The notes beneath the pieces are model-generated. The model worked only from the letters and a program-made list of their open reading frames with translations, had not been told where the DNA came from and searched no databases. Positions 2,845 through 27,095 of a stretch of 28,252 nucleotides of DNA are shown here, one piece after another (within the stretch, counting starts at the first letter, position 1; every line of letters starts with the position of its first letter). Both the position numbers and the translations under genes were made by a program. The stretch covers positions 1 through 28,252 of the forward strand of contig BTUM01000097.1 in NCBI GenBank assembly GCA_045863235.1. The letters are read 5' to 3'. The DNA is from Candidatus Xenobia bacterium. Its GTDB lineage: Bacteria; Vulcanimicrobiota; Xenobia; Xenobiales; QWHO01.

Positions 2845-3104
2845 ATAGACCGGATGCTCAGCGAGCTCCGCTCCAGCGGGGCGAGCTCGACTCTCTCAGG
2901 GCGCCTTGACCCTGCCCCCGCCCGAGATCGACCTGGGCTCCGAATCAGCGCTGGGGCGGGGGGCTCCGTCGCTGCGTCTGATACCCTGAGAAATCGCACT
3001 TGTCAAAACCAGGAGCACTTGGTAGCACGTTTTGGAGGCGAGAGCTCATCGCGCGCCAGGCAAGTGCCGGGTGCAATCTTACGTCGGAGAGGCTCGGGGA
3101 TTGC

Positions 3105-3455
3105 TCAGCGAGGCTTGCGGCCAAAGATCTTCTGATAGACTTGAGCGCCTGTTGTTCCGGGAATAACTGCTTGCCATTTGGAGTGCTTGCCCCGGTCACA
3201 ACGCCACTGCGGTGGTTCCTTCGTCAGATACATCCTGTTATAGTAAATTCTTCCATCTGCGTAAGTTTCGGCTATCGTAAGATGAAAGTTGTTCTTGTCA
3301 ATTTTTTTCTTGCTGTTCATGTCCACAAACATGACATATTGCTCGCCGTGCTCGTCAGTCATGATTCCGGCGTTATAATATTTCGGAGATTTTGATACTG
3401 GGTAGTCCTGAGCACTGGCCACTCCTGAAAATAGGAATAACAAGAGCAATGCCAT
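3105..3455 (-). CDS. Small secreted hypothetical protein (116 aa), lower GC than flanks
   Basis: ATG at 3455 preceded by GAGGAAAGG. Signal-peptide-like MALLLLFLFSGVASA|QD. AT-richer codons than neighbours. Confidence 0.7.
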   Translation of the reverse strand: MALLLLFLFSGVASAQDYPVSKSPKYYNAGIMTDEHGEQYVMFVDMNSKKKIDKNNFHLTIAETYADGRIYYNRMYLTKEPPQWRCDRGKHSKWQAVIPGTTGAQVYQKIFGRKPR

Positions 3456-3859
3456 TGCTCTGCCTTTCCTCGTCATCGGTGCGATCAGAACTCGTGCGCC
3501 AAGCTGGAGGAAGAAGCCCGAGACGCGTCGAGCGGAGAATGTAGGCTGATTCGTCTGACAAAGATCGCGCTTGGCCATGACCAGGATTACGCCGCTTGGC
3601 TGGCAGCTCCTGCCGTGGACAATTCCCCAAATTGATCCAGTGTGGTCGGTCACCTGGCCCGGGAACATCCTGGCTGGGGGAGCCGGCCCGGCCGTCTGGT
3701 TCTGGGATCGGACAGGTGATCGAGCGAACCACGTGCTTGTTTATTGTTTGAGCTGCCTGTCGTGATATCCGGTCAGGTAATGGACACGGACCCGGTCTCG
3801 CTCCCGCCGGCTCCTGGTCTGGCGCCTTCTCGATGAGCTCCGCGGCGACTGACCTCCAT

Positions 3860-4132: not shown

Positions 4133-5410
4133 TTAAGCCCCCGCCCCCACCGCCCGCCGCGTCAACCACCCGATCCCCGCGAAATACAGCCCGTAAGCCG
4201 CGCAGTTCACCAGCACGTAGAGGCCGATGGTGGACTCGAAGCTCGCCTGCGGAAACAGCTGGGGGCTGAACACTGCCAACAGCAGCACAAGCGAGCCCAC
4301 GTCATAGAACAGCTTCAGCCGCTGTCCCTGGAGCACGAACACCAGCCGGCTCAGCGGCACCACCACGAACTGGCACAGCACCAGGGGAGCGAGCACCACG
4401 CTCAGCTGCCCGGCCGTTGCCCAGCGGGCCCCGAACAGTGTCTGGAAGAGCCACGGTCCGAGCAGCACCAGGATCAATGTGGGCACAAGCCCCAGCAGGA
4501 ACAAGCGCAGCGAGATGCCCCGGAACATCCCCCAGAGCCGCTCGGGAGCCTCCAGCCGCAGCTTGGAGGCCTCGCTGTGCAGCGCGTCCGCCACCGAGGC
4601 TGAGGCGACCGCCAGCGGACCGGCCACCAGGCGCTGTACGAAGGACAGGTTCCCGGCCGCGTCCGCCCCGAAGCGCATCGTCACCAGCGGGATGGTCAGG
4701 CTCAGGGCCAGAAGGTCGATCAGGGACGAGGGAAGCAGCACCAGCGGCGAGCGGCGGTGCGCTCCGGCCGCCTGGCGCAGGGCCAGCGCCGTCACCTCCG
4801 GGGCGCTCTGGCGAAAGCTCTTCCACAGAGCCGGCATCAGCCACAGGCAGCCGGCCAGCTTGGCGGCCATCTCCCCGAGCAGCAGCCCGGCCGCGCCCAG
4901 GCCCAGGGCTCCCAGTCCCAGTTGCACCGTCACCCGTCCCACCGACTGGGCCACGATGGCCGAGCTCAGCCGTCCGAAGGCGTCCGCCTTGAGGGTGGTG
5001 TAGCGCGAGCACTCCATCCAGGCCCCCAGAGCCACCGTGGGCAGCATCAGGGCCACCACCCAGAGGCTCAGCTCGCTCAGCCCCAGCACCTGGTAGCGCG
5101 TCAGCACGAGCACCCCCGCTACCAGCAGGGGAGACATCACCAGCGTGGCCAGAAACGAGGTGATGGATAGCAGCCACGACTCGCGCTCGGAGTTGGCCGC
5201 CAGGATGGAGACGTCGTAGCGCAGCGGCGCGGCCATGGTCAGCAGGCTGACGAAGGCCAGGAACACCCCGTAGAGCCCCATCTCCGCCGGCGTGTAGAGC
5301 CAGCCCAGGAACGGGGTGGAGAGGAACTGCAGCGTGTAAGCCAGCCCGATTCCCCTGCCCAGCACCGAGACCTTCCGGACGAAGGGATGGGCGAAGGCCC
5401 GCCGCAACAA
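4133..5410 (-). CDS. wzx: Wzx-type oligosaccharide flippase (MOP/PST family)
   Basis: About 12 TM helices. LYTPAEMGLYG, LRYDVSIL and LFGARWATAG motifs typical of polysaccharide flippases. TTG start with upstream GAGAGGA. Confidence 0.85.
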   Translation of the reverse strand: MLRRAFAHPFVRKVSVLGRGIGLAYTLQFLSTPFLGWLYTPAEMGLYGVFLAFVSLLTMAAPLRYDVSILAANSERESWLLSITSFLATLVMSPLLVAGVLVLTRYQVLGLSELSLWVVALMLPTVALGAWMECSRYTTLKADAFGRLSSAIVAQSVGRVTVQLGLGALGLGAAGLLLGEMAAKLAGCLWLMPALWKSFRQSAPEVTALALRQAAGAHRRSPLVLLPSSLIDLLALSLTIPLVTMRFGADAAGNLSFVQRLVAGPLAVASASVADALHSEASKLRLEAPERLWGMFRGISLRLFLLGLVPTLILVLLGPWLFQTLFGARWATAGQLSVVLAPLVLCQFVVVPLSRLVFVLQGQRLKLFYDVGSLVLLLAVFSPQLFPQASFESTIGLYVLVNCAAYGLYFAGIGWLTRRAVGAGA

Positions 5411-5500
5411 TTCAGGTGCTTCCTCTCACAGCCCCGCCCCTTCAACGATGGCCCTGCCGCTCCTTTGTCCCGGCCCCGCCTTCCAGCTCCATGTCCACGA

Positions 5501-5593
5501 CCCTCAACGATGCAGCCTCAGCTTGCCCCCAATGCCCCTCAACGATGCAGCCTCAGCTCGCCCCAATGCCCCTCAACGATGCAGCCTCAGCCC
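5501..5593. repeat. Short tandem repeat, 34-35 bp x ~3
   Basis: CCCTCAACGATGCAGCCTCAGC at 5501, 5536 and 5570; degenerate CCCTTCAACGATG near 5438. Confidence 0.9.
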
Positions 5594-5613
5594 GCTCGCC
5601 CCGACCCGTTGAC

Positions 5614-6141
5614 TCAGCGCGAGCCCCACCCGAACGTCCACCCCAGCACCACCGCCACCCGGTAGCGCCGGACGGGCACGAACCCCGCCTTCTCGATCCC
5701 CCGCACACTGGCCGGATTGCTCACCGTGGTCGCGATCAGCAGCCGGCGCGACCCCCCCAGCTCTTCGGCCACCCGCGCCAGCACCGCCGGATACACATTC
5801 TTCCCGCGCGCCTCCGGCGCCGTCTCGCAGTAGTGCACGTAGGCCTCTCCTGCCCGCAGCGCATAGCTCAGCCGGCGAAACAGCCTCACCTGGCGCGGCC
5901 CCATCTGCACCCAGCTGCGATGCACGCAGCGCCCCTCGAGGTAGCCCAGGTAGCCGCGATCCCCGCGCGAGAGAAAGTCCCGGTAGACCTCCAGCTGACG
6001 CGGGGACTCGAACTCGAGCAGGTCGGCCAGGTTCTCCTGGCTGGCCGCCACCACCGTGCAGGGCGACCCCACGCTCACAGCGTTCCGGTGCTCGAACAAT
6101 ACCACCGTCCCGAACCAGAACAGCCGCCGTAAGATCCGCAT
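5614..6141 (-). CDS. GNAT-family N-acetyltransferase (175 aa)
   Basis: AYVHYCETAPEARGKNVY (acetyl-CoA motif A) and NPASVRGIEKAGF (motif B). ATG at 6141 preceded by GGGAG. The ORF-track extension to 6372 runs into the islet. Confidence 0.88.
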   Translation of the reverse strand: MRILRRLFWFGTVVLFEHRNAVSVGSPCTVVAASQENLADLLEFESPRQLEVYRDFLSRGDRGYLGYLEGRCVHRSWVQMGPRQVRLFRRLSYALRAGEAYVHYCETAPEARGKNVYPAVLARVAEELGGSRRLLIATTVSNPASVRGIEKAGFVPVRRYRVAVVLGWTFGWGSR

Positions 6142-6206
6142 TTGGCTCCCAGTATACCAGGGCGCGCAACGCCGGACGGGCGGCGAAGCCGCGCCCCGCC
6201 GCCATG
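6060..6206 (+). repeat. Left direct repeat of the islet (147 bp)
   Basis: 6060-6175 is identical to 10184-10299 (116 bp), and 6180-6200 is identical to 10300-10320. The left copy has an extra ACGG and an extra GCC before the shared ATG. Confidence 0.97.
6151..6159 (-). promoter_or_regulatory. Putative extended -10 promoter (TGG TATACT) of the GNAT gene
   Basis: The minus strand reads TGGTATACT-GGGAGCCAA-ATG, matching TGnTAnnnT 9 nt before the start codon. Confidence 0.55.
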
Positions 6207-6280
6207 TGGGGGTTGGGACGAGATCCCGAGAGCACGGGACCTCGGATGGGAGACCTCTGACATCATACTCGGAAGAACCC

Positions 6281-7126
6281 TCAATCTTCGGAGTGCGAAG
6301 GGAAGAGGTGCCGTCCTGTCGCTTCACATAATGGAGCAAAATGTTTGGTATTAGAAGTGCAGATTGTAGCATCTTCGGGAGCCGAAATGGTGATGATAAT
6401 ATCCCCGCAGGACCAACAGGTCTGGTAACCCTCTTTGTTGCTGAGAGCGTGTTTCCAAGATTCGCATTTCTTTAGGGCCTCTTTTAAATGGGTGCGAGAT
6501 TTGGCCTGCTCTGGATCTCTCTCATGCAAAGAATCCAACTTCTCCAAAACCTTCTCTAGTTCAGGCTTTCTCTCTCTGAGAAATCCTTTTAGATTACATT
6601 CAAGCTTCGAACTGGTGCATCGAGAACCAGCAACATTCTCAAGCGAACCAGTCTTGTCGTTCACGGTTAGGCCTTTGATGTCTTCGTAGCAAGCCATCAG
6701 GTTGGGGGAGGCCCCATCTACAAGGGTGCTGGTCACGGCATTCCAAAGGCGGTAGGCGTGGAGAACTAAGAAATCTTTCACCTTCTTGAGCACGTATGAA
6801 TCCAGACTCAGGGCTCCAGTCGACTCTTTGCCTATCTCCTCCCATAAGGCTTCTAATGTCTCAGCGACTGTGCCTTGTCGGTAACGCTGTTGGTGAACCC
6901 GATTGATGACCCGATAGACCTCCGAATACTTGGTCGAGTTGACCAACACGCTGTGCAGGTAAACCAGATACTGCAGAACGCCTCGCTTAATCTCCATGCG
7001 CACGTAGTTGTTCGTAACCCGGACAGCAGGCGTCGCGGTTTCCCTAGAGAGAGCTTCGTGCTGGCCCTTTCTAAAGCAGAGGTCTATCAGCGCTGAGGTC
7101 TCGAGGAAACAGACTTTTGGGGCCAT
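6281..7126 (-). CDS. Large PIN-domain ribonuclease-like protein (281 aa) with Cys-rich insertion
   Basis: N-terminal CFLETSALID (PIN first acidic motif, E for D) and RMEIKRG. C-terminal CWSCGDIIITISAPEDATICTSNTKHF (PIN D..T-x-N-x-x-HF). Starts 1 nt after the upstream stop. Confidence 0.8.
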   Translation of the reverse strand: MAPKVCFLETSALIDLCFRKGQHEALSRETATPAVRVTNNYVRMEIKRGVLQYLVYLHSVLVNSTKYSEVYRVINRVHQQRYRQGTVAETLEALWEEIGKESTGALSLDSYVLKKVKDFLVLHAYRLWNAVTSTLVDGASPNLMACYEDIKGLTVNDKTGSLENVAGSRCTSSKLECNLKGFLRERKPELEKVLEKLDSLHERDPEQAKSRTHLKEALKKCESWKHALSNKEGYQTCWSCGDIIITISAPEDATICTSNTKHFAPLCEATGRHLFPSHSED

Positions 7127-7127
7127 T

Positions 7128-7712
7128 CTAGAAGGCTTCAGCGAAGAAGTTGCCGCCGAAATCTATTCCAGCCTCTTCTAATGTCTGAATCCACTTAACA
7201 AACGTGGCCTCACTTGGGCGCGCTGTAATAGCCAGTTCGCCGCAAACTTTCTCCAACGCAATTAGTTCCCGTTGACTGAAAGGGATGCCACGATGCTGCC
7301 TTAGGGCGACTTCAATCCCCGTGACTAATGTGTCCCAGAACGTGTGGCCAGTATCAATCGTGCCCGCCTCGTGAATGTCTCTCAGGGCATACTCCAGTTC
7401 CGTAAGCTGGGCGAGGTCATCGTCCTCTGCTCTGATCGCGCGTCCCAAAAATTCAACGACGTTCTTAAGCAGCTTACGTGCTGTAAGAGCGGGACTGGTC
7501 GCCTCTGCATAAACAACGCCAGGGTCAATGTCACGCATACCACGTCTAGCCAAAGGTCGACCAGACTCGAGTTCGCGGACGGCCGCACTAGCGGTTCGCT
7601 TCATGCGGTCATTGTTGTCCAGGGCAGGTTCATCGTCCATGATGGCAGTACCGCCCTCGCCCGACTCCCTCGGAGAAGCGACTACTCTCGCTGTCTTCTC
7701 ATTTGACGCCAT
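7128..7712 (-). CDS. Hypothetical protein (~194 aa), middle gene of the three-gene operon; candidate antitoxin or adaptor
   Basis: ATG at 7712, 5 nt after the upstream TGA (an in-frame TTG at 7721 overlaps that stop). Charged, probably disordered N-terminus and helical acidic C-terminal half. Confidence 0.75.
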   Translation of the reverse strand: MASNEKTARVVASPRESGEGGTAIMDDEPALDNNDRMKRTASAAVRELESGRPLARRGMRDIDPGVVYAEATSPALTARKLLKNVVEFLGRAIRAEDDDLAQLTELEYALRDIHEAGTIDTGHTFWDTLVTGIEVALRQHRGIPFSQRELIALEKVCGELAITARPSEATFVKWIQTLEEAGIDFGGNFFAEAF

Positions 7713-7717
7713 GATCC

Positions 7718-8404
7718 TCAAGCCTCACATCCTAGGCGCTCCGACAATACGTGCTTGGCCCGTTTCAAGCACGCTTTAGCAAAGTCACTAAACTTAAGTT
7801 GTTCGACTCTTATACTATGCGGGATAAACCGGTCAATGTCTATACTCAGGCCGGTTCCAGAGAAGTCATCTCTAATGGCTACTCCGGGTGGCGCCGATAT
7901 GGTGAGAGTTCGAGTGAAGGACTTGAGGGTAATTCTGGAGCCGATCTTGTCATCTTCCGCATGAAAACTAGTGGTGATAGCCTTTACCTCTAGATCAGGG
8001 TCTGTCGAGACTGGATCCGACGCCACCAAAGACGTCCGGCGAAAAACCGCCAGGGCGTTCTCCAGTGGTCCCATCGCGATCCAAATGCCCCTACACCCCA
8101 CCCTTGTGACGGCATCCAAATCTAGTGTAGTTGTGATCACCGGTAGAAAATCGTCGAATACGTCGAGTTTGGGCTGATGTACTCCCGCCAAGTCCAGTTG
8201 TACGTAGGCTCGTTGGTAGTTGAAGTTAACCTGTCCGGGTATTTCCTTACTAAGGAACTTGGCTTCGGATGTGGTGATCTCGACCATTTCAAGATCTTCG
8301 CACTGCTTCTGGAGTTCTCGCCAGATCGCCCCACATCGGTCCCAGTATAACCACCCTTGGTCATATCGGATTTCAACAACCAGAGTCTCAAGCTTCGGTT
8401 TCAT
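7718..8404 (-). CDS. TIGR04255-like family protein (228 aa)
   Basis: N-terminal PKLETLVVEIRY, central VTRVGCRGIW and C-terminal LSIDID resemble the PLxEVVxEIRF / RIGLRYIN / LDID pattern as I recall it for TIGR04255. Confidence 0.65.
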   Translation of the reverse strand: MKPKLETLVVEIRYDQGWLYWDRCGAIWRELQKQCEDLEMVEITTSEAKFLSKEIPGQVNFNYQRAYVQLDLAGVHQPKLDVFDDFLPVITTTLDLDAVTRVGCRGIWIAMGPLENALAVFRRTSLVASDPVSTDPDLEVKAITTSFHAEDDKIGSRITLKSFTRTLTISAPPGVAIRDDFSGTGLSIDIDRFIPHSIRVEQLKFSDFAKACLKRAKHVLSERLGCEA

Positions 8405-8873
8405 TCCATTTGGCTTATCCCGTCGGATTCTTCGGAGTGGCTATGCTGCGCCCCTCGCTTGGTTCTTCCTTCCTGATCACATCAACTAGCGCCGCTGTAA
8501 CGAAGCCAATCCGGGAAGAGCGACTCACAAGCGCGATAAAAACGAATAAATCTGCAAGGAGAGCTTACCCCGAGTTGGCAGCTGAAACCCGCAATAGGTG
8601 AAAGCCTATTGGGGGGGTGTATCCCTAGCTCTGCGCCAAGTATCAGGCCTCCGATGAGCTCACTTGTCCGTTTTTGGGTCAGATCGCACGAGAGTGCGTC
8701 TCTTTTCAGCGAGGCATAAGGTACTAACAGTCCACCGTTTTCGAAGCGACCGCATAGCACTGTACTCCCGCCTATCCGAAGAGTCGCCAAACCGAATGAC
8801 CGCCCGTACTGACGCCATTGTTCTACGCTTCGACGGCACCCTCCCTTCAGTCGCGCTCTAAGTTTAGAACGAG

Positions 8874-9539
8874 TCAAAACGCGTGTCGCTTGTCGCCCAG
8901 GAAGTTGAGAACATAACGCACAGTATCCACTCTGTCTTGTATTTCGGGGTTGGTTAGGTCGTCGAGAAAGGCCCGACAACTTGCGTCGACCTTCTCGAAA
9001 AGCATCACCGTATGGAAGCAAGCGTTTCGGCCATTGTGTATTGACGTACAGAAGGCCGTGACTGAGTCATCTGAGCGAAACTCGTCGCCCCTCCTCACTC
9101 TCAGCGTATGGACGAGGGCGTTACGAAAGTTGTCGCCGAATCTGTAGGCAGCAGAAACGCCACCCACAACTTGCATCCACTCCGGGTCTTGGGTTCGTTC
9201 GAGAAAGCGTGCAATCTGTCCAGGTTGGCTATCTCGTGGCCTGCCGCGCTCCCAATTCTCTGCGAGAGTTCCCGCGCAGCACGCCAGAATCATCAAAGCC
9301 GCCATATGCCCGGGAACTCGCTCAGGCGCCCGCTGAAGCTCGAAAAGACGGCGCGCTGGCTCCAGAAACCATTCCCTGACACGCCAGCGGTAGAATCGCG
9401 CCGCTCGGTCGATGTCAAAAGAATTGGAATCGAAGCGGCCGAGGCCTAACACCCGCTTCTCAACCTGAAGAAAATTGCCCCAGTCGGGTGTAGGCCAGTC
9501 TACCTGGCACTGCTCGGGGTCGTATAGCAGCGGAGGCAT
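8874..9539 (-). CDS. HEPN-like RNase candidate (221 aa)
   Basis: FRNALVH is an RxxxxH motif in a helical context, preceded by RVREWFLEPARRL..MAALMILACC. GGAG lies upstream of the ATG. Confidence 0.7.
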   Translation of the reverse strand: MPPLLYDPEQCQVDWPTPDWGNFLQVEKRVLGLGRFDSNSFDIDRAARFYRWRVREWFLEPARRLFELQRAPERVPGHMAALMILACCAGTLAENWERGRPRDSQPGQIARFLERTQDPEWMQVVGGVSAAYRFGDNFRNALVHTLRVRRGDEFRSDDSVTAFCTSIHNGRNACFHTVMLFEKVDASCRAFLDDLTNPEIQDRVDTVRYVLNFLGDKRHAF

Positions 9540-9676
9540 CGCTTGACGTTCACGACTCCTTCGAGTAGCACCTGCCTATGTCTACAGCCAGACCTTCTCG
9601 GCCTTCTTGCGAAGGTCCTTGTATACTCGATAGTACACAATCTGATCGTCGTACATCGGCTTAGCCTTTGCCAATC

Positions 9677-10045
9677 CTAACTCGCTTCGATAGAACACGC
9701 GTCCCTAAGTTTTTTGATTCTCATTATTTGTGCGTCGAAGAGGTCGGATAAGACGTTATAGTGGTAGGTGCTTGTTCCCTCAACAATGACTGCAACAGCC
9801 TGCCAATTCTGACGCACCAGATTGGTCGCCTCTAGGTAGTCGTTGAGAAGGGCGGTCAATTCCATGAATGCTTCAGCAGCCTTGATATCGCCCTTCCTGA
9901 GCTGAGCAGAGATTTTCTCTGTCCGGTCATTAGCATACTGGTCCATTATCAGGAGATTACGCCCCGCCTCCCAGCCATTGTTCTGAGCGAGACAAGGGTG
10001 CGACAACAGCACGGCCATCCGAACGACCGTAACGGAGACTCTCAC
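9677..10045 (-). CDS. Hypothetical, possibly exported protein; probably frameshifted near its 3' end
   Basis: Weak signal-like N-terminus (..AVLLSHPCLA|Q) and helical body. An overlapping frame at 9582-9704 continues with 40 plausible residues. Confidence 0.55.
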   Translation of the reverse strand: MRVSVTVVRMAVLLSHPCLAQNNGWEAGRNLLIMDQYANDRTEKISAQLRKGDIKAAEAFMELTALLNDYLEATNLVRQNWQAVAVIVEGTSTYHYNVLSDLFDAQIMRIKKLRDACSIEAS

Positions 10046-10183
10046 GCCATACCATTCGCGGGTCGATTCGTTCGGACCTCGTCCGCCCCGACTGATCGTG
10101 GACTACTATGGCGTGGACGAACTCCAGGGTAATCGCCCAACGCACTTTCCATTCGGATACCCGGGGTCTCTACAGCGATGGAG

Positions 10184-10323
10184 AGGGCGACCCCACGCTC
10201 ACAGCGTTCCGGTGCTCGAACAATACCACCGTCCCGAACCAGAACAGCCGCCGTAAGATCCGCATTTGGCTCCCAGTATACCAGGGCGCGCAACGCCGGG
10301 CGGCGAAGCCGCGCCCCGCCATG
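10184..10323 (+). repeat. Right direct repeat of the islet (140 bp); contains a truncated copy of the GNAT 5' end
   Basis: Matches 6060-6206. The minus strand 10170-10265 encodes MRILRRLFWFGTVVLFEHRNAVSVGSPSPSL*. The repeat ends at the deacetylase ATG. Confidence 0.97.
10275..10283 (-). promoter_or_regulatory. Duplicated extended -10 promoter pointing into the islet
   Basis: Identical to 6151-6159 (TGGTATACT on the minus strand). Confidence 0.5.
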
Positions 10324-11688
10324 CTCTGTGTCCAAGTCCCGGCCGGCCGGGAAGCCGAAAGACGCTACATCGTCGAGGTCTTGCTCGGTGAGTTCCTGGG
10401 CCTCGAGCACCAGCTCCTCGTCGGGCCGGGCGCCACCTATCGCCTCGAGCAGGAGGGCAAAGTGCTCGAGCTGCCCGATTGCTTCCTGGGCATGCCCGAG
10501 GAGCACTGGCTCGAGCCCTGCTCGCTCCCTCCTCAACCCCTGAGGTCGGCTCGACCCAACCTCGAGGCTCTCCTGGCCCGCCCCGAGGTCCCCGTCCTCT
10601 ACGGCCAGGACCCCCTCTATCGCCCCACCGAGCAGGGCGGCTTCCTGGGCCTGGACGTCTTCGGCTCGGCCTTCTTCATGCTCAGCCGTTACGAAGAGGT
10701 GGTCAGGCGCGAGCGCGACTCCTTTGACCGTTTCCCCGCCCGCGCCTCGCTCGCATACCAGGAGGGCTTTCTCGACCGGCCCATCATCAACGAATACCTC
10801 GAGCTTTTGTTCTGCGCCATGCGAGAGCTCTGGCCGGGCCTGCAGCGCAAGCAGCGCAGTTTCTCGGTCAAGGTCGGACACGACGTGGATGAGCCCTACC
10901 GCTATGCCATCGACAGCCCTTACATCCTGGCCCGGCGCTGTGCCCGCGATCTGAGCCGCCGGCCCACCCCGGCGGGAATCTTGAGCACCCTGACCCGCAT
11001 CGCTCGAGTCAAGGCCGGCAACCTGGCCATCGATCCCTACGATACCTTCGACCGCATCATGGACCTGGGCGAGCGCCTCAACCTCAAGAGCGCCTTCTAC
11101 TTCTTCGCTCACAGCGGTCCCGACGACGGCCAGTACAACGTGCTCCACCCTTGCATCCGCAGCCTGGCGCGCAAGATCCACCGGCGCGGCCACGAGGTTG
11201 GCCTGCATGCCAGTTTCGCCACCTACGACAATCCGGATCAGATGACCCTGGAGGTGCGGCGTCTGGTCTCCATCATGGCCGAAGAGGGCGTGCGCCAGGA
11301 GCGCTGGGGCAACCGCCAGCACTACCTGCGCTGGAAGACCCCCAACACCTTCGAGAACCTCGAGCGGGCTGGCATAAGCTACGACGCCACCCTGGGCTAT
11401 CCCGAGCGGATCGGCTTCCGGTGCGGCGTATGCTATGACTACCCCGCCTTCTCGCTGGGCCAGCGACGGGCCCTGAAGCTGCGCGTGCACCCTCTCACAG
11501 CCATGGAGATCAGCGTCTTTCACTACCCCTATATGAACCTGGGCACCACCCCGCGGGCCCTGCAGGCCATGCTTGCCCTCAAGGCTACTTGCCGGCGCTT
11601 TGAGGACGAGTTCCGCTTGCTCTGGCACAACAACACCCTGGCCAGCCCGGTCGAGTTCGACCTCTATCGCGGTTTGCTCGAGGCCTGA
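10321..11688 (+). CDS. Polysaccharide deacetylase family protein (CE4/NodB-like, O-antigen-cluster type; 455 aa)
   Basis: DVFGSAFFMLSRYEE..DRFPA..FLDRPIINEY, GHDVD, GHEVGLHAS, RQHYLRW, YDATLGYPERIGFRCG and LLWHN motifs. Start moved to ATG 10321 because the upstream ORF-track part is repeat and islet sequence. Confidence 0.88.
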   Translation: MLCVQVPAGREAERRYIVEVLLGEFLGLEHQLLVGPGATYRLEQEGKVLELPDCFLGMPEEHWLEPCSLPPQPLRSARPNLEALLARPEVPVLYGQDPLYRPTEQGGFLGLDVFGSAFFMLSRYEEVVRRERDSFDRFPARASLAYQEGFLDRPIINEYLELLFCAMRELWPGLQRKQRSFSVKVGHDVDEPYRYAIDSPYILARRCARDLSRRPTPAGILSTLTRIARVKAGNLAIDPYDTFDRIMDLGERLNLKSAFYFFAHSGPDDGQYNVLHPCIRSLARKIHRRGHEVGLHASFATYDNPDQMTLEVRRLVSIMAEEGVRQERWGNRQHYLRWKTPNTFENLERAGISYDATLGYPERIGFRCGVCYDYPAFSLGQRRALKLRVHPLTAMEISVFHYPYMNLGTTPRALQAMLALKATCRRFEDEFRLLWHNNTLASPVEFDLYRGLLEA

Positions 11689-13263
11689 TCAGTCGGGCGA
11701 GCGCAGCAGCCACCAGCAGGGCGTCTCGCCCAGGTACGGTCGGGCCGCATCCAGCTCGTAGTAGTCGGCCCAGTCCAGCCGGCGCAGAGGCTGAAAGCCG
11801 GCCGCCTGCCAGGCCGGGTCGAGCGCCGTGCCCGAGTTCTGGTAGACCACCGCATAGCGCGCTCCGAGCTCTCGGACGTTGTGGCTCACCCGCTCCAGCG
11901 AGCGGCCCCAGAAGTTGGCTCCCTGCGGGTGGTTCTCCGAGATCACCGCCCACCAGTCCGGCAAGAAGTGGAAGTCACGCTGGCCGGCCACGTAGAGGGG
12001 GAGCTCCAGCAGTACCCGGTAGCCGTCGAAGATCTTGGAATAGTCGTCCACCGGGTCCTCGAAGGCCATCAGCACACGCTCGCCGGGGCGCACCAGGGCC
12101 AGGAAGTCCTCCACCGGGCGCACCAGGTTCTCTACCCGGAAGGGCGCCAGGGCCGGCATCGTATCCAGCCGGGGGCGGGGCATGAAGGTCAGCAGCACCG
12201 CCGGCAGCGGCGAGATCACCAGCCAGGTGGAGACGGCCAGCAGCGGGTCGGGGCGCACGATCAGCGCTCCCGTGGCCAGACTCATCATCAGCGCCAGCAG
12301 CGAGCAGGGGTCGGCAAAGCGAAAGCCGGTGGAGTTCAGCACGAACAGGATGAATCCGGCCAGGATCAGGCCCAGCCAGGGGTGTCCGAGCAGCCCCGCC
12401 ACCACCACGAACTGCCCGAAGGACGCCAGGTAGAACCAGAAGCTCAGCCCCAGGCGGCTCGAGTGCTTGTAGCGGGCCGGGCGGCGCAGGATGCCGATGG
12501 ACATCAGGATCGCGTGCGAGCTCGAGAAGACGTCCCCCCGCTCGAGGTTGGGCAGAAAGTGCGTCAGCAGCTTGCAGAGCGCCGGCAGCACCGTCAGGAG
12601 CGGCCAGGGCGACCACGTCCACAGGCTCTGGGCAAAGCACAAGATGATCATCATCGTGGTGGCCGTGAAGCTGCCCAGGCTGACTCCCAGCCAGGCGATC
12701 ACGGCCAGGGGCCAGATGCCCTGCGTGACCGCGTACAGTCCCAGGGGCACGAAAGCCCAGCCCAGCGTATTGTAATTCTGGCCGATGAAGGCCTCGAAGT
12801 AGAAACCCGTGCTGATCAGGGCCAGCCCCATCACCGCCAGCACCAGGGCAAAATCGTGGTTGACCGCGAACACCGCGTGGGCGGCCAGCCACCCGAACAT
12901 GCCCAGGGGCGGCCCGATGGGGGCCAGTCGCCAGTAAGCGTAGAGCGAGACCAGCGTCTGGAAGAACCAGCGCGACAGGGGATAGTTGCCCATCCCCAGG
13001 TGGGGAGCCGTGCCCCGCCGCCCGTGGCGGTAAAGGTTGATGGCCATGGTGTAGTAGAACAGCGTGGAGATGCCAAAAAACGGCGTGAAGGCGTTGTAGG
13101 ACCCCCAGCGGCCGTCCAGCAGCACCCGCGAGCGAACCAGCGTCGTGGCCAGCTGAAAGGGAGTGGTCAAGAGCACCGTGAGCGGATAGAAGGCCAGTCG
13201 GAGGGCCGCCATGCGACCGAACCGGGTGTTGAGCTCTCGCCAGATGTGCCGTGCCAACCTCAC
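11689..13263 (-). CDS. Multi-pass membrane protein of unknown function with a soluble C-terminal domain (possible GT-C-like)
   Basis: About 11-12 hydrophobic segments followed by ~150 hydrophilic residues; high GC3. Start uncertain (GTG 13263 chosen; the ORF extends to 13374). Its stop abuts the deacetylase stop. Confidence 0.75.
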   Translation of the reverse strand: MRLARHIWRELNTRFGRMAALRLAFYPLTVLLTTPFQLATTLVRSRVLLDGRWGSYNAFTPFFGISTLFYYTMAINLYRHGRRGTAPHLGMGNYPLSRWFFQTLVSLYAYWRLAPIGPPLGMFGWLAAHAVFAVNHDFALVLAVMGLALISTGFYFEAFIGQNYNTLGWAFVPLGLYAVTQGIWPLAVIAWLGVSLGSFTATTMMIILCFAQSLWTWSPWPLLTVLPALCKLLTHFLPNLERGDVFSSSHAILMSIGILRRPARYKHSSRLGLSFWFYLASFGQFVVVAGLLGHPWLGLILAGFILFVLNSTGFRFADPCSLLALMMSLATGALIVRPDPLLAVSTWLVISPLPAVLLTFMPRPRLDTMPALAPFRVENLVRPVEDFLALVRPGERVLMAFEDPVDDYSKIFDGYRVLLELPLYVAGQRDFHFLPDWWAVISENHPQGANFWGRSLERVSHNVRELGARYAVVYQNSGTALDPAWQAAGFQPLRRLDWADYYELDAARPYLGETPCWWLLRSPD

Positions 13264-13502
13264 CAGGGGGCCGCCAGTTCGTTCGCCCGGGCGGCGAATC
13301 CTCCAGCTCGACGAGGCCGGAAGCCCTCCAATGAGCCGCTCTCCAAGCCCTGTCGCTGGAGGGACGCCCCCCACCAGGCCTGGAGCAGAGTTCTTCGCGT
13401 CAGGTCAACTGCCCGACCCGCGACACCTGTCGACCACGCGCCCGGGCGGCCCCTCCACGCAAGCAAAGCTCTCCACCCCCAGGCCATCCGCAAGCAAAGC
13501 CC

Positions 13503-14906
13503 CTACCCCCGCAGCACCGTGCGCAGCGGCCGCCGGCTGGCCAGCCCCACCAGCAGAAGGCAACCCGCCAGCACCCCCGCCACCGGCACCACCTGGCCGT
13601 GTACCACCAGCCAGGTCAGCCCCAGCGTGGCCCCCACCCCCGCCAGCACGATGGCCAGCATCCGCAGCCAGGGGAACCCGACCGGCCAGAGCCGCTCGCT
13701 CAAAAAGAGCGAGGCGAAGTTCCAGACCGTATACGAGGTCACCACCGCCGCCGCCACGCCCGCCAGTCCCCAGTGGGGGATCAGGGCCGCGTTCAGGCTC
13801 AGGCTGAGCACCGCCGATGCCCCTGCCGTGACGGGGATCAGGTTCGAGCGCTGCGACTTCCAGAAGCCCGGCGTGATCACGTTGAACAGTCCCGACAGCA
13901 CCACCGGCCAGCCCAGGATGCCCAGCAGCGGGTAAGCCTCGCGGAACTTTGCTCCCACCAGCACCTCTACCGCGTACGGCCCCAGGCCCGCCAGTAGCAG
14001 CACGGCCGCGCAGCTGAGCAGCAGGTAGAGCTGGGCGATGTTGCGGAACAGCCCCGGCCCCTGCTCGCGGTTGATCGCCTCCATGGCCAGCGGCCAGAAA
14101 GCCTGGCGAAAACTCTCCATCCAGAAGCTGATCACCGACGCCAGACGGTAGGCCACCGCGTAGAGGCCCAGGGCCGAGGCGCCCATGAAGTAAGAGATCA
14201 GCCACTTCTCCCCGTTGGCCAGCGTGTACAGGGCCACCGCCGCCGGCACCAGCGGCAGTCCCGTGCGCAGCAGGCGGCGGGCTTCCTCGCGATGCAGCCG
14301 GCCCAGCTCCAGCAGAGCGCGGTTGCCGAACCAGCCGATCGAGGCGGCTACCAGCCCTCCCACCACCTGGCCCAGGAAGAACGCCTCCACCGACCAGCCC
14401 AGGCCCAGCATCGCTCCCAGCGAGGTCAGCCCGGCCACCACCACATAAAGCAGATTCACCCCCACCGAGACCGCCGGGCGGTGGCGCAAGCGGTCGAGGT
14501 CCACCGAGCCGCTCATCAGGAGCTGGCAGAGCAGGCCCAGCAGGGCCAGGCCCAGTGGAACCAGCTCCAGCCCGGCCAGCCAGCCCACCGTAAAGGCCGC
14601 CGCCGCCAGGCTTGTCCCCACCCCCAGCAGAAGCTGCACGCGCGCGCTCACCAGGCGGCGCAGGCTCTCGGGATTCTCCCCCTCCACCTGGTAGAAGTGA
14701 TACGAGAGGGCCGTATCCGCTCCCAGCACCATGAAGCAGGTCAGCAGGGCTTGCAGCTGCACCAGCGTCTCGATGCGCCCGTACTGCTCGGGGGCCAGCA
14801 GCCGGGTGTAGGCGGGGATCAAGAGCAGGTAGAACGATCCGATCAAGACCTTGCCCAGCCCGTAGGCGGCGGCTTCGCGGCCCAGCCGCAGGAACCAGCT
14901 ACGCAT
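13503..14906 (-). CDS. wzx: Wzx-type oligosaccharide flippase (second copy, different subtype)
   Basis: LLIPAYTRLLAPEQYG, GLPLVPA, ALGLYAVAYRLAS and LNAALIPHWGLAGVAAA motifs; about 13-14 TM. ATG at 14906. Confidence 0.88.
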   Translation of the reverse strand: MRSWFLRLGREAAAYGLGKVLIGSFYLLLIPAYTRLLAPEQYGRIETLVQLQALLTCFMVLGADTALSYHFYQVEGENPESLRRLVSARVQLLLGVGTSLAAAAFTVGWLAGLELVPLGLALLGLLCQLLMSGSVDLDRLRHRPAVSVGVNLLYVVVAGLTSLGAMLGLGWSVEAFFLGQVVGGLVAASIGWFGNRALLELGRLHREEARRLLRTGLPLVPAAVALYTLANGEKWLISYFMGASALGLYAVAYRLASVISFWMESFRQAFWPLAMEAINREQGPGLFRNIAQLYLLLSCAAVLLLAGLGPYAVEVLVGAKFREAYPLLGILGWPVVLSGLFNVITPGFWKSQRSNLIPVTAGASAVLSLSLNAALIPHWGLAGVAAAVVTSYTVWNFASLFLSERLWPVGFPWLRMLAIVLAGVGATLGLTWLVVHGQVVPVAGVLAGCLLLVGLASRRPLRTVLRG

Positions 14907-15006
14907 GGAGGGGATCGTTGTGCATGGCGGGGTCAGGATACCACTGCCGGTCAATCCCTTCCTGCGCAGGAGGAGGCCGCGGGGCGGGCGGGGCATAGGG
15001 TGGGCG

Positions 15007-16299
15007 ATGCAGTATCTGGCCTATCGCCTCCCCCCGGGCTGGGACCCGGGGGCCAGCCTGGAGGCGCCCGAAGTCCAGGCCGAGGGCCGGGTGGGTCGCC
15101 CCGGCGAGGCTCCTGCTCACCTGCCCCGCCAGGTGGGCCGGGGAGCCTGCTGGCTGCTGGGCTGCCGGGGCAGCCGGACAGACCAGCTGACCGCCCGCAT
15201 CCGCCAGCTGGCCGCCCGAGCCCGCTCCCAGGCGCCCGAGGTCTACGTGGACGCTGACCCCCTCGACTCCGTCGCCCGGGCCGCCATCCTGGCCGCCGGC
15301 CTGGAGCCGGCCGGGGTCATCCGCACCGGTCTCGTGGGGAGGTGGGAGCGAACCCGCCCTCATCCCGAGCTCCGTCGGTTCACGGCCGCCGATCCGTCTC
15401 CCCTGGCCCTGCCCGGCTGGCTCGACTTCAACCGCTGGCGCTGGCGGCTCGAGCCCCTGGCGGTGCGCCTGGAAGGCGATCAGGCCGCCCTGGAGACCGT
15501 GCTCTACAAGAATCGGAACGGCCGGCTGTGCACTCCCCCCCTGAGCCCCTACCTGCCCATCGCCTTTCTGCCCAGCCCCACCAGCTCGCCCATCCGGCTC
15601 GGTCGCCAGTGGCTGGAGGTGGGCCAGGCCCTGGCCGAGGAGCTGGCCCGCCACCCTATCTACGGCCCCCTGCGCCTGCCGCCCGAGGTCCGCGACGTGC
15701 GCCCCTTCACCTGGCGAGGCTTTCAGATGGAGCCGGTCTACACCTACCTGCTCGACCTCCCGTTGGCTCTCGAGCAGACCGACCACTCGGTGCGCAAGAA
15801 TATCGCCAAGGCCCGTCGCCAGGGGTTTTCCTGCGGTCCCACCCGCGACTATGCCGCCGTTTGCCGCTGCCTGGCCGAGACCGAGGAGCGCAAGTCGTTC
15901 ACTTACCTCCTGCAGCCGCCCGATCTCGAGCAGGCCGTGCGCCTGGTGGGGGAGGAGCACCTGCGCGTGCTGGCGTGCTTCGGCCCGCAGGGCGAGATGG
16001 TGGGGGCCCAGGTGGCCCTGCACGCCCCCGGCGGCCGGGCCCTGGACCTGGTGGTGGGAATCCGCACCGAGTATCGCACCAGCGGAGCCGCCCAGCTGCT
16101 GATGGCCAGCCTGCTCGACCAGCTCACCGCTGCCGGGGCCACCGGCTTTGATCACGCCGGAGCCGACATCCGGGTGGTCGCCCGGGCCAAGGCCAACTGG
16201 GGAGGCGAGCTCACCACCGTCACCATCCTGCGTGCCCCTGGCCTGCGCCAGCTAGCCCGTCAGGGGAGGGCTATCTGGCGCTACTTTCGCCCCCGCTGA
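15007..16299 (+). CDS. GNAT/FemAB-like acyl- or aminoacyltransferase (430 aa)
   Basis: PPLSPY, DVRPFTWRGF..YTYLLDL, VRKNIAKA, GAAQLL and FDHAGAD..AKANWGG fit the Fem/Acetyltransf_6 pattern. ATG 15007 lies 5 nt after TAGGGT (possibly leaderless). Confidence 0.8.
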   Translation: MQYLAYRLPPGWDPGASLEAPEVQAEGRVGRPGEAPAHLPRQVGRGACWLLGCRGSRTDQLTARIRQLAARARSQAPEVYVDADPLDSVARAAILAAGLEPAGVIRTGLVGRWERTRPHPELRRFTAADPSPLALPGWLDFNRWRWRLEPLAVRLEGDQAALETVLYKNRNGRLCTPPLSPYLPIAFLPSPTSSPIRLGRQWLEVGQALAEELARHPIYGPLRLPPEVRDVRPFTWRGFQMEPVYTYLLDLPLALEQTDHSVRKNIAKARRQGFSCGPTRDYAAVCRCLAETEERKSFTYLLQPPDLEQAVRLVGEEHLRVLACFGPQGEMVGAQVALHAPGGRALDLVVGIRTEYRTSGAAQLLMASLLDQLTAAGATGFDHAGADIRVVARAKANWGGELTTVTILRAPGLRQLARQGRAIWRYFRPR

Positions 16300-17598
16300 G
16301 TCGCGCGGGTAGAGCGCCAGGATCAAGAGCAACAGCAGAAAGCCGTTCCCCAGCAGGATGGGGAAGATGCCCCCGTTGGTCAGGTTGATCAGCTGGAAGC
16401 TGCAGACCAGCACCACCAGCCGCACGTCCAGCCCCCGCGAAACCGAATCCAAGAGCCAGAGCGTCAGCATGGCCGCCAAGGACTCGATCAGCACGCCCGC
16501 GACGTACATGTTGGCGTAGCCGTCCCCCCACAGGTTGACGTTGGGGTCGGTCAGTTGCCCGAAGTAGGTGTAGCCCAGCACCTGCTTGTAGCCGAAGGCG
16601 TAGGGCGAGGAGAAGAAGAAGCTGAACCCCTTCACCTCGCCGAACATGGCCACCGGGTTGTCCTGGAAGAACTGAAAGTAGATCACCGTCAGGTAGCCCG
16701 GTCCCACGAACACGCGCCACAGCACCAGGTCGGTCAGCACCATCGTCACGATGCTGCGCGTGTCGCCCAGCACCAGCGCCCCCAGTCCAAACAGGGCCAC
16801 GATGGCCCACACCCAGCGTTTGGCGAAGCTCTGGCCGGTCTTGCCCAGGATGGGCACCAGGCTCAGGATCAGAACCGCCGAGGCGGGCATGGCCTTCATG
16901 GCCCCTACTGCGAAGAAGAACACCTGCCCCACAAAGCCGAGCATGAAGAGCAGGGGCTTGCGTCGATACACGGCGTAGGCCATCAAGAGCGGATTGAGCA
17001 CCTGCGACTGCCAGGCCAGCGCGTAATTGGCCGGAAAGCGCACCTGCTGCTCGAACACCGCGCGCTGGATGTAGATCTGGGCCGCCGAGGAGACCAGGTT
17101 GAGGCTGGCCCCGAACGCCCACACGCAGATGCCGTAGAACACCACCGTCACCAGCGCGAACCCTCCCCAGAAGCTGGCCGGGGAGACCCGGAAGGGGGGC
17201 ATGCGCATGGTGGGCAGCACCATGCTGACCATGAGGATGGCCATGCCAGCGAGCAGGGCCAGGTTGATCTCCAGGATTTCCAACCCCGAGGCGTTGTGCC
17301 AGCAGGTGTAGAGCAGCGAAGGCACGTACACGATCGTGTACATGCCCCAACAGAAGAACTGGGAAGGCCGTTTGAGCACCAGCGGCAGGAAGAAGGCCGG
17401 CAGCAGCGTCACCAGGACGATGGCGGCGATCTCCAGCGGCGGCCGGGGGAAATAGATCAGCCCCATGTGGGCTTCCAGGGGATGCACGTTGCGCACGTAG
17501 CAGACCCAGAAAAAGACGAAGTAGAGCGCCATGCCGAGCAGGATCAGGGCTCGGGCCGCCAGGCCGCGGGAGAGGATGGACCTTGTCGTGGGGCTCAC
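16252..17598 (-). CDS. wzy: O-antigen polymerase (Wzy)-like membrane protein
   Basis: About 12 TM with IYIQR, GAMKA, WRVFVGPG..YFQFF and PNVNLWGDGYAN motifs; context of two flippases. Start uncertain (17598 or 17631). Its 3' end overlaps the convergent gene by 48 nt. Confidence 0.7.
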   Translation of the reverse strand: MSPTTRSILSRGLAARALILLGMALYFVFFWVCYVRNVHPLEAHMGLIYFPRPPLEIAAIVLVTLLPAFFLPLVLKRPSQFFCWGMYTIVYVPSLLYTCWHNASGLEILEINLALLAGMAILMVSMVLPTMRMPPFRVSPASFWGGFALVTVVFYGICVWAFGASLNLVSSAAQIYIQRAVFEQQVRFPANYALAWQSQVLNPLLMAYAVYRRKPLLFMLGFVGQVFFFAVGAMKAMPASAVLILSLVPILGKTGQSFAKRWVWAIVALFGLGALVLGDTRSIVTMVLTDLVLWRVFVGPGYLTVIYFQFFQDNPVAMFGEVKGFSFFFSSPYAFGYKQVLGYTYFGQLTDPNVNLWGDGYANMYVAGVLIESLAAMLTLWLLDSVSRGLDVRLVVLVCSFQLINLTNGGIFPILLGNGFLLLLLILALYPRDSAGAKVAPDSPPLTG

Positions 17599-17629
17599 AA
17601 ACAACCGGGAAACGGGCCTTTCGCGCGGC

Positions 17630-17638
17630 ACTGTAACA
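17630..17638 (-). promoter_or_regulatory. Putative extended -10 (TGT TACAGT) upstream of the wzy-like gene
   Basis: The minus strand reads TGTTACAGT, matching TGnTAnnnT. Confidence 0.4.
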
Positions 17639-17839
17639 TCGCCCGATGGCCCCCGTCAACCGTGAGAGGACGTCCGGCGTGTCGACCATGCCTGCAGCTG
17701 GCGGTGCCATGGCGCATGGCTGCCGCGCAAAGCCTCGGCTCGCTCGGGGACCCTTTCTCCGAGTTGACAGCTTCCGCGTCTGATCATGAGCTGACTGACC
17801 CGGAGGGACTTGCTGACCGAGACAAGAAAGGCGGGCCCC

Positions 17840-19417
17840 GTGTCCGACGAGTCAAACCCCCCAAAGGTCCGCTCCACGAGCTGGAAGGCGTTCTCGCTCC
17901 CGCTCTTGTTCACGACCTTCGTGCTGATCCACTTCTATTTGACCAACTACATCGAGGTCAATCTCTCCGAGTTCTTGTTCGTGGCCGGCCTTCTGCTGGG
18001 ATTGATCGCGGCCATAGAGCTGGGGCTCTGGGCCTGGCTCAAGGACATGGACCGGGTGGGCCTCATCACCGGGCTGGGCGCCTTCTTCTTCTTCAGCTAC
18101 GAGCGCATCGTCTACGCTTACCATCGCTTCTCCCAGAAAGTGGGCACCGAGCTGGCCCTGGTGGGCACGGCCGATCCGTCCCACGAGACGCGGGTGCGCT
18201 TTCTGTTTCTCCTGGCCGGGGTGACCCTGCTGGCCGGAGTGGTGCTCTTTCGCCTGAGATTCGACCTGCGGGGCCTGGTGCGCTTTGCTTTCCTCTGCTC
18301 GGTGGCGGCCGTGGTGCTGGCCGCCGGAACCGGGGCTCTCAACATGGCCGGCCGGCTGCGTCCTCGGCTGGAGCTGACCCCGCCCGGACCGGTCAAGAGC
18401 AAGCCCGACATCTACGTGCTCTTGCTCGATGCCTTCGGGCGCCCGGACGTGCTCGAGCGCGATTACGGGGTGCGCACCGGGCCCTTCGTGGCTTCGCTCG
18501 AGAAGCTGGGGTTCAAAGTCTTCACCCGCAGCCTGGCCAACTACCCCACTACCTCCTACGCCCTGGCCTGCGAGCTCAACTACGCCTACATCGACCAGGA
18601 AAGCGTGGGGATCCCCGCCGACTACCCCTCCGGGTATCCCCTCATCCCGTTGATCCACAGCAACCGGGTGACCCGCTTTCTGCGCGAGCAGGGCTACGAG
18701 ATCATCAACATCTATGGAGGCGTCCACTTCACCCGGGCCTTCGAGGCCACCACCCGGCGGCTCGGCTCGCGCCGCAGCGTCAACGGATTCTTCTACGTCT
18801 TCTTCAAGCACACCCCGGTGGACGTCATCGCCCCCGACCTTCTCACCGTTCCCGAGCTCGATCTTCGCCGCGACATCCTGCTTGAAGCCCTGCAGGAGCT
18901 GCGCGAGCTGCCCCGGCAGAGCGATGCCCCTCGCTTCGTCATGCTGCACGTCCTCTGCCCCCACTCCCCCTTCTTCGTAGACGCGCAGGGGGGTCGGCCC
19001 TTCGCCGACCCCGCCTTCGACTGGGAGGGCAAGCGCGACCACGCCCCGGGCTACGCCGGCCAGGCCGAGTTTCTCCAGAGCCAGGTGGAGCCGATCGTGG
19101 CCGAGTTGCTCAAGGACCCCGCCCGCGAGAGCGTCATCTTGATCCAGGGCGACCACGGACCCGTTCCCCTCCAGCTCGAGCCTCCGGCCACCTACCAGCA
19201 GCGCTACCCCAACCTCTGTGCGCTCTACTTGCCCGGACGTGACTACACCGGCATTCCCGAGGACCTCTCCCCGGTCAACTACTTCCGCGTCATCTTCAAC
19301 CGCTTCTTTGGGACCAACCTCGAGCTTCTGCCCAACAAGGCCTTCTATCTGCTCGAGGGCACCAAGTATTTCAAGTTCACCGACATCACCGATCAGGTCA
19401 ACCAGACCTCGCCGTAA
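17840..19417 (+). CDS. Membrane-anchored sulfatase/alkaline-phosphatase-superfamily transferase (LtaS/EptA-like; NoeB-like)
   Basis: About 5 N-terminal TMs, then PDIYVLLLDAFGR, NYPTTSYAL (Thr at the nucleophile position), HVLCPHSPF and IQGDHG. GTG 17840 follows GAAAGG. Confidence 0.85.
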   Translation: MSDESNPPKVRSTSWKAFSLPLLFTTFVLIHFYLTNYIEVNLSEFLFVAGLLLGLIAAIELGLWAWLKDMDRVGLITGLGAFFFFSYERIVYAYHRFSQKVGTELALVGTADPSHETRVRFLFLLAGVTLLAGVVLFRLRFDLRGLVRFAFLCSVAAVVLAAGTGALNMAGRLRPRLELTPPGPVKSKPDIYVLLLDAFGRPDVLERDYGVRTGPFVASLEKLGFKVFTRSLANYPTTSYALACELNYAYIDQESVGIPADYPSGYPLIPLIHSNRVTRFLREQGYEIINIYGGVHFTRAFEATTRRLGSRRSVNGFFYVFFKHTPVDVIAPDLLTVPELDLRRDILLEALQELRELPRQSDAPRFVMLHVLCPHSPFFVDAQGGRPFADPAFDWEGKRDHAPGYAGQAEFLQSQVEPIVAELLKDPARESVILIQGDHGPVPLQLEPPATYQQRYPNLCALYLPGRDYTGIPEDLSPVNYFRVIFNRFFGTNLELLPNKAFYLLEGTKYFKFTDITDQVNQTSP

Positions 19418-19472
19418 AGGACGCGGGCCCATGTCGGCGAATTCTCCCGGACAATTTTTGGAGCTTCATCGC

Positions 19473-19667
19473 ATGCACAGGTTTCTCGCCATCTTCCTTC
19501 TCGCCTTGCTGACCCTCAGGCCGGCCCAGGCTTACATCGACCTCGGCTCGGGCAGCTATATCCTGCAGATCGTCCTGGCCTTCTTGTTCGGCTCGCTCTT
19601 CTACGTGAAGAGCGCCTGGCAGAGATTCGTCGGCCTGTTCCGGCGCAAGCGCGACTCCTCCAAGTAA
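19473..19667 (+). CDS. Small membrane protein with AYIDxGSGS motif (64 aa)
   Basis: GGAG ribosome-binding site; signal-like segment, then AQAYIDLGSGSYILQ, a TM helix and a basic tail. Lies 4 nt before the next gene. Confidence 0.8.
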   Translation: MHRFLAIFLLALLTLRPAQAYIDLGSGSYILQIVLAFLFGSLFYVKSAWQRFVGLFRRKRDSSK

Positions 19668-19671
19668 GCTT

Positions 19672-26897: not shown

Positions 26898-27095
26898 GTA
26901 AGAACGACCGTCGAGCTGACTCAGGAGCAGCGTGCCAGACTCGTCGAGCTGGCCGCCCGACGAGGGGCCGACGAGGGGAGAAGGGCTTTTCCTGGTTGGT
27001 TCAAGAGGCCATCGATGCCTACCTGGAGGTTTACGGGGCTCAGAGTGAGTGGACCCGGGCGGCTCAATCCGTTCTTGGCACGTTCGACAGCGCTG
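26898..27095 (+). pseudogene. CopG/RHH (VapB-type) antitoxin pseudogene
   Basis: Removing one copy of the 11-bp tandem duplication CCGACGAGGGG (26957-26978) restores RTTVELTQEQRARLVELAARRGEKGFSWLVQEAIDAYLE. The start codon reads GTA, and the 3' end runs into a repeat array. Confidence 0.75.

Follow-up and report, generated by a model that had tools for sequence, protein, structure and literature searches.

Three tightly linked genes make up a mobile cassette that distant microbes share, and they probably constitute a putative immune module of the toxin–antitoxin-like kind. The genes were analyzed in contig BTUM01000097.1 of a Candidatus Xenobia bacterium, and the window refers to the whole 28,252-nucleotide stretch. 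The trio is real and, with a toxin role predicted, is judged to be an undescribed variant of the three-part toxin modules.

Organization and mobility of the three-gene unit

The initial annotation described three tightly coupled minus-strand genes in a lower-GC islet, and both parts of the description were confirmed. The open reading frames are as given (Table 1), the spacing is 5 nt between gene 1 and gene 2 and 1 nt between gene 2 and gene 3, and the GC content of the trio is 0.52, whereas the flanks have 0.65 and the genome as a whole 0.658. Direct scans of the trio proteins against Pfam, NCBIfam, PADLOC, and PHROGs gave no matches beyond chance; a beta-lactamase match at E 0.025 in the scans of the window proteins was rejected as chance. 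A search for promoters and terminators at the locus returned none that was convincing above shuffled background.

Table 1 Features of the three-gene locus and the insert that carries it (window positions).
Feature	Position	Strand	Description
Gene 1	7718..8404	minus	228 aa; remote TIGR04255 homolog, proposed regulator (chaperone or sensor)
Gene 2	7128..7712	minus	194 aa counted from ATG; proposed antitoxin or adaptor
Gene 3	6281..7126	minus	281 aa; VapC-type PIN with insert, proposed RNase toxin
Left direct-repeat copy	6060..6200		141 bp, 97% identical to right copy; contains probable start of gene 5614-6140
Right direct-repeat copy	10184..10320		small indels at one end versus left copy
Passenger ORF	8874..9539	minus	221 aa; RNxxxH motif, no family match
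Passenger ORF	9677..10045	minus	122 aa; no family match, not conserved beside trio

Word-based homolog searches were nearly blind: gene 3 yielded three relatives and gene 1 yielded none, with seven when an alignment was used, and a first genome scan found 0 of 64 candidates. A profile built from four close gene-3 sequences and applied at E 0.001 or better recovered 580 cluster representatives. Loci were fetched from two sub-alignments, covering 12 of 53 in the largest clade and 11 of 22 in the clade nearest the window. This gave 44 genome and 37 metagenome loci, 81 in all, and 66 of these include 1.4 kb of upstream sequence. Both partners are present in 64 of the 66, and the order and strand of the genes are identical in all 64, which supports the conserved three-gene order that the initial annotation proposed to look for. 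After duplicate removal the trio is complete in 52 of 54 loci. The two exceptions are L042 and L044, whose match to the PIN protein is confined to its C-terminal part. By record title, the loci belong to Acidobacteriota, Alpha-, Gamma-, and Deltaproteobacteria, and Bacteroidota, among other groups.

The partner profiles had originally been seeded by position, so they were rebuilt from one collection and tried on the other. The held-out profiles recovered the partners, and they identified gene 1 (E ≤ 1e-25) and gene 2 (E ≤ 7e-9) of the window among 5,015 ORFs. In the reverse test, 401 genomes from a single phylum were searched with the gene-1 profile and 4 had a match, a set that includes one already-counted center genome and may otherwise overlap earlier loci. 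In all four, the second gene downstream encodes the family PIN; the middle gene fits the gene-2 profile in three. A fourth recurring gene beside the trio was not found among 68 distinct loci. These data identify the trio as a near-obligate unit of three genes that is mobile and retains an intact PIN. Several loci have split genes, for which long-read errors are a possible cause. A divergent trio at L095:2-2142 (minus strand) has an insertion in gene 1, a middle gene under the gene-2 threshold, and the family PIN.

The trio of the window lies with the two passenger ORFs inside a 4,124-bp low-GC insert at 6060-10183, bracketed by the two copies of the direct repeat. Of four sequencing runs compared, contigs from X2 and X4, which belong to two different studies, join position 6059 to 10184 and represent the empty site, and run X1 covers the insert in pieces. 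Because the X2 and X4 contigs bridge 6059/10184, near-identical strains exist without the insert. A search of 43 other genomes from the class did not find a full-length family PIN; it gave six weak partial matches, all of them within long ORFs from a single genus, and these were set aside as chance. An integrase is absent inside the insert, and the 141-bp duplication takes in the probable start of the neighboring gene. The RNxxxH motif of the 221-residue passenger is reminiscent of HEPN nucleases, making this ORF a possible second RNase that adjoins the trio, and it is not conserved with it. The surroundings of the insert, which it interrupts, are a region for polysaccharide biosynthesis (4133-21078) with two Polysacc_synt-type flippases by Pfam and, by eye, deacetylase-like and acetyltransferase-like genes. 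Elsewhere in the window, at least eight imperfect copies of a 66-69-nt repeat occupy the contig end (1-700), similar short repeat arrays are found at 5492-5594, 27075-27243, and 28068-28252, and a minus-strand ORF at 3105-3668 has no Pfam match and lies in a second low-GC patch (0.50 at 3001-3500).

The same signs of mobility are found at other loci. The GC content of the trio is under that of its flanks in 42 of 43 loci. At least 9 of 45 loci have the cassette between a direct-repeat pair of 30-141 bp; five of these lie at a tRNA gene, and the repeats of L036 and L040 contain hardly anything besides the trio. The flanks were scanned at 44 loci using the two nearest ORFs on either side (150 of 183 flanking ORFs). 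Defense-type neighbors occur at four: a helicase-nuclease plus Shedu (L007), type I restriction (L013), DUF4357 (L019), and a methylase (L046). The clear defense-island enrichment envisaged at the outset is not supported by these 4 of 44 loci, counted without a background control. Integrases flank two loci, other toxin-antitoxin genes three, and transposases two; the remaining flanking genes are mostly housekeeping. Relatives in the PIN clade were not found in plasmids, phages, or viral contigs. Because the cassette is mostly outside defense islands, discovery based on neighborhood would tend to miss it. The clearest defense-island setting is L007:29-10609, where the trio sits between the helicase-nuclease gene and the Shedu gene. 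In L009, L038, and L043 the cassette adjoins an S-adenosylhomocysteine hydrolase gene, which is split in L043.

Properties of the three proteins

Gene 3 was analyzed using an alignment of 125 proteins of 255-295 residues taken from 153. The PIN motifs that had been read in the last gene are present, and the catalytic residues are conserved in these full-length homologs: D/E9 in 124, E45 in 123, D242 in all 125, and N259 in 124. The Pfam PIN model matched 11 of the 125, each weakly. The predicted structure has a mean pLDDT of 89.7. VapC folds take the top ranks in the VIA fold search, where PIN-family proteins make up nearly all of the first 32 rows, and the alignment to VapC21 has a Z score of 9.7 and an rmsd of 3.3 Å over 134 residues scattered over positions 3-281. 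Foldseek gave no match for the model at E 0.001. Because the VapC21 alignment spreads across 3-281, the PIN domain is interrupted by approximately 140 residues. The fold check thus returned a PIN fold, and in the predicted model gene 3 is a VapC-type PIN split by a helical, cysteine-bearing insert of this length.

The extra cysteines noted in gene 3 are retained with one exception. C146, C170, C177, and C237 are kept in 122, 121, 123, and 124 of the 125 homologs, respectively, and the fifth, C240, is present in only 40. The four near-invariant cysteines probably form a zinc site that pins the inserted helical domain, in keeping with the possible zinc-binding effector that had been suggested. 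From the fold and the catalytic residues in the alignment and model, we infer that gene 3 is a metal-dependent RNase. Gene 3 adds an unclassified family of PIN nucleases, with at least 580 clusters and a probable zinc-pinned insert.

The architecture of gene 2 was derived from 44 paired sequences and consists of a variable, low-complexity N-terminus, an LY motif, a helical core, and an acidic tail. The variable region has a median length of 59 residues and is low in order-promoting residues. The tyrosine of the LY motif, Y68, is near-invariant (42/44) with a leucine before it. The aromatic tail proposed as a functional motif is not conserved in the family, and the conserved aromatic residue is Y68. 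Gene 2 has a median net charge of -11, and gene 3 one of +12; the contrast is weak in the window, because the PIN protein there has a net charge of only +2. The distance matrices of gene 2 and gene 3 give the best correlation of the pairs, 0.85, the weight of which is limited because a correlation between linked genes is expected from co-transfer alone. None of the 44 gene-2 proteins matched the DNA-binding Pfam families (RHH, AbrB, Phd, and HTH), and comparison with Atlas and PDB sequences gave no usable match. Prediction of the three-chain complex with gene 2 as the partner gave 0.82; the two partner-swapped controls gave 0.00 and 0.00, and the PIN-swapped control gave 0.67, inside the 0.20 margin, so that the score counts neither for nor against binding. 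Acidic where the PIN is basic, and co-varying with it, gene 2 is plausibly the antitoxin.

A short hydrophobic motif in many gene-2 N-termini is reminiscent of ClpX-binding tails. Such patterns were counted in 9 of 56 N-termini versus 0.2 in shuffles and in 19 of 56 versus 3.5; a fourth pattern is not enriched (4/56 versus 1.9). The motif is weak at best in the gene 2 of the window. Because the patterns are post hoc and come from related sequences, a ClpX-tether role of the gene-2 arm is a lead only. ClpX tethering as a possible model for the arm is taken from two reports (PMC12373786, PMC5422525). The adaptor of the type VI toxin–antitoxin system SocAB, which links the toxin to ClpXP, is likened to gene 2 by description, as a possible model (PMC5422525).

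Gene 1 was initially called TIGR04255-like. The relationship stands as a remote homology, and the window protein itself falls below the family model: neither it nor its genome gives a match to NCBIfam TIGR04255 at the curated cut-off of 30 bits. The model is matched by 11 of 47 members of the gene-1 family (best E 2.9e-7), and the gene-1 clade mostly scores under it. A gene-1 profile aligned over its full length with a profile of 29 canonical TIGR04255 members (hhalign probability 98.1%, E 1.1e-13, 217 columns), the RxGxR and DxD motifs are common to both, and the Atlas structure listing contains a TIGR04255 cluster at TM 0.71 to gene 1.

The predicted structure of gene 1 (pLDDT 92.4) is a twofold beta-alpha-beta4-alpha saddle of the TBP type. 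SecB is absent from two fold-search listings, which do not support the SecB-like assignment. The fold neighbors include Rep initiator, McsB (kinase domain, Z 7.8 over 164 residues), AdoMet decarboxylase, TBP, and glutamine-synthetase-type folds. All Z scores are below 8, a level that the fold-search tool rates as common, and therefore no fold family can be named for gene 1. Foldseek gave no match for the model at E 0.001, and PDB sequences gave none for the protein. R101, R105, D189, and D191 are invariant in all 47 proteins at a mean identity of about 25%; E11 is present in 44 and R13 in 45, and D22, G25, and G103 are also invariant or nearly so. In the secondary structure the charged residues alternate on three strands, which suggests that together they make a single charged patch where the face of the sheet is open. 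A hydrophobic groove, as in a chaperone, is a poorer likeness for these invariant Arg, Asp, and Glu residues than a ligand site or a catalytic site. The canonical TIGR04255 consensus retains the charged residues in part.

Relationship to TIGR04255 loci and described systems

Canonical TIGR04255 genes, like gene 1, head three-gene units. In a sample of 401 genomes from a second, large phylum, 31 contain TIGR04255, and 30 canonical loci (L096-L125) were examined. Neither this gene 2 nor this PIN is present in any of the 30. The genes downstream are mostly tightly coupled, and clustering sorts the second genes of 24 loci into seven groups and the third genes of 22 loci into five, the two sets of groups being matched to each other. 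Some second genes carry an HTH, and two match the PADLOC candidate PDC-M32A weakly. One further third gene is a PemK/MazF (E 1.1e-18). Eleven of the 20 third genes tested belong to four prophage-borne PHROG families of unknown function (4575, 10743, 11836, and 34320), and there are at least five unannotated third-gene families. By motif, other third-gene groups look ART-, MazF-, and papain-like; PDB profile searches and the PemK profile comparison gave no support for these labels.

Because its first-gene family heads other antitoxin-effector-like pairs, the cassette appears to be the PIN version of a modular family. It is possible, although we lean against it, that TIGR04255-type proteins are an undescribed class of regulators in universal use, or of sensors for phage, with no kinship to SecB, and that they steer swappable antitoxin-effector pairs through a disordered N-terminal antitoxin arm. 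If this is true, there would be a widespread superfamily of three-part immune systems whose effectors include a zinc-PIN RNase, MazF, and several unknown enzymes, and the cassette would be its PIN branch. The proposal gives TIGR04255, a curated family of unknown function, a testable role. If gene 1 is the trigger sensor for many toxins, the family would be a second independent answer to the problem solved by SecB chaperones and a source of new effectors.

Among the closest analogs are the toxin–antitoxin–chaperone (TAC) systems HigBAC, MqsRAC, and CmdTAC. In their description (10.1101/2024.02.24.581848), a disordered ChAD with key aromatic residues joins antitoxin and SecB-like chaperone, and there is competition for it from phage proteins. 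As described there, TAC systems resemble the trio in having three genes, a constant partner family with different toxins, and a middle protein that is disordered in one region and has an aromatic residue under conservation. They differ in that the SecB-like gene follows the toxin–antitoxin pair, whereas the constant gene is first in 64 of 64 complete loci, and the ChAD is C-terminal, whereas the low-complexity arm of gene 2 is N-terminal and ends at Y68. The third protein is SecB-like in TAC systems; the trio has a TIGR04255-like protein with a TBP-like saddle, and its effector is a PIN. Because the gene order and the position of the disordered region differ, the trio is not a TAC system, but it may still work like one.

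VapBC systems share with the trio the VapC-type PIN fold, the D/E, E, D, N catalytic set (D6, E43, D99, and E120/N117 of VapC1; PMC5499597), and a tightly coupled upstream partner. They consist of two genes, a small single-domain toxin and an antitoxin that has a DNA-binding domain at its N-terminus, whereas the trio has a 281-residue nuclease with an insert and four conserved cysteines, an obligate third gene, and a 194-residue partner with no RHH, AbrB, Phd, or HTH match. The size, the third gene, and the partner lacking a DNA-binding match separate the trio from VapBC. Two further comparisons come from the DefensePredictor report (10.1101/2025.01.08.631726). DS-3 is a PIN split between the N- and C-terminus with catalytic residues needed for defense, and DS-5 is a PIN with a partner that is genetically required for defense. 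One gene encodes DS-3 and two encode DS-5, whereas the trio has three with obligate partners, and they are likened by description rather than by sequence.

PADLOC-DB 2.0, which holds systems up to 2023, gave no matches for the window proteins or for 47 gene-1 proteins, and six single, scattered, weak matches among the 125 PIN proteins. A paper describing the trio was not found in the open literature, with the qualification that subscription journals and the DefensePredictor supplements could hold a member, and TIGR04255 is unmentioned in the open literature searched. The statement that the trio is not a recognized named system therefore agrees with PADLOC 2.0 and the literature searched. The parts of the first interpretation that gained support are the conserved unit, the PIN, the probable zinc site, and the kinship with TIGR04255; the SecB-like gene 1, the aromatic tail, and clear defense-island enrichment did not.

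Proposed mechanism and alternatives

The reading we favor, at a little short of even confidence, is that the cassette is a mobile toxin–antitoxin–regulator module, probably anti-phage, in which the regulator would hold the antitoxin until a trigger arrives. The mechanism is proposed by analogy with the TAC systems, where a ChAD, a SecB-like chaperone, and competing phage proteins play these parts. The acidic helical core of gene 2 would bind the basic gene-3 nuclease; its N-terminal arm, disordered and with the LY motif at its end, would make the antitoxin unstable or dependent on gene 1. Gene 1 would be the constant regulator, holding the arm so that the antitoxin stays functional. Displacement of gene 1 from the arm by stress or by a product of the phage would release the nuclease, which would cut tRNA, rRNA, or mRNA and abort the infection. 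A toxin module is favored by the co-occurrence, the VapC fold, the catalytic set, the charge contrast, the mobility, the matched TIGR04255 pairs, and the DS-3 precedent. The lack of a DNA-binding match in 44 gene-2 proteins, the few defense neighbors, the lack of relatives found in plasmids, phages, or viral contigs, the weak charge contrast in the window, and the resemblance of the charged residues of gene 1 to a ligand or catalytic site argue against it.

The foremost alternative, which we judge somewhat unlikely, is an activation complex: the PIN would be held off by its own insert, gene 1 as sensor and gene 2 as adaptor would switch the nuclease on, and all three would be needed for defense. 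The sensor would bind a nucleotide, nucleic acid, or phage protein. The large conserved insert is like that of single-gene DS-3, which is proposed to be auto-inhibited, and the DS-5 partner is required for defense and is not an antitoxin (10.1101/2025.01.08.631726). The location of E11, R13, R101, R105, D189, and D191 on three central strands of gene 1 is consistent with such a sensor, as are its weak fold neighbors that bind DNA or nucleotides (TBP, Rep initiator, and McsB; Z < 8), and gene 2 has no DNA-binding domain match. However, the second and third genes behind TIGR04255 are strictly paired, as with cognate antitoxins, gene 2 is acidic and one arm of it is disordered, and the partnerless PINs are C-terminal fragments only.

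It is improbable that the cassette is a selfish addiction or stress-response module that stabilizes small inserts and has no anti-phage role. The cassette is usually alone among housekeeping genes, the repeat-bounded inserts are small and losable, and genes are split at several loci, with the reservation noted above about long-read errors. Against this, three obligate genes totaling 2.1 kb are costly for simple addiction, none was found on a plasmid, and related third genes belong to prophage protein families. Least probable of all is that gene 1 is a kinase-, ligase-, or transferase-like enzyme that controls the system by covalently modifying gene 2, gene 3, or RNA; the four invariant charged residues and the McsB and glutamine-synthetase-type neighbors agree with an enzyme, but every Z score is below 8, PDB sequences gave no match, and canonical TIGR04255 keeps the charged set in part.
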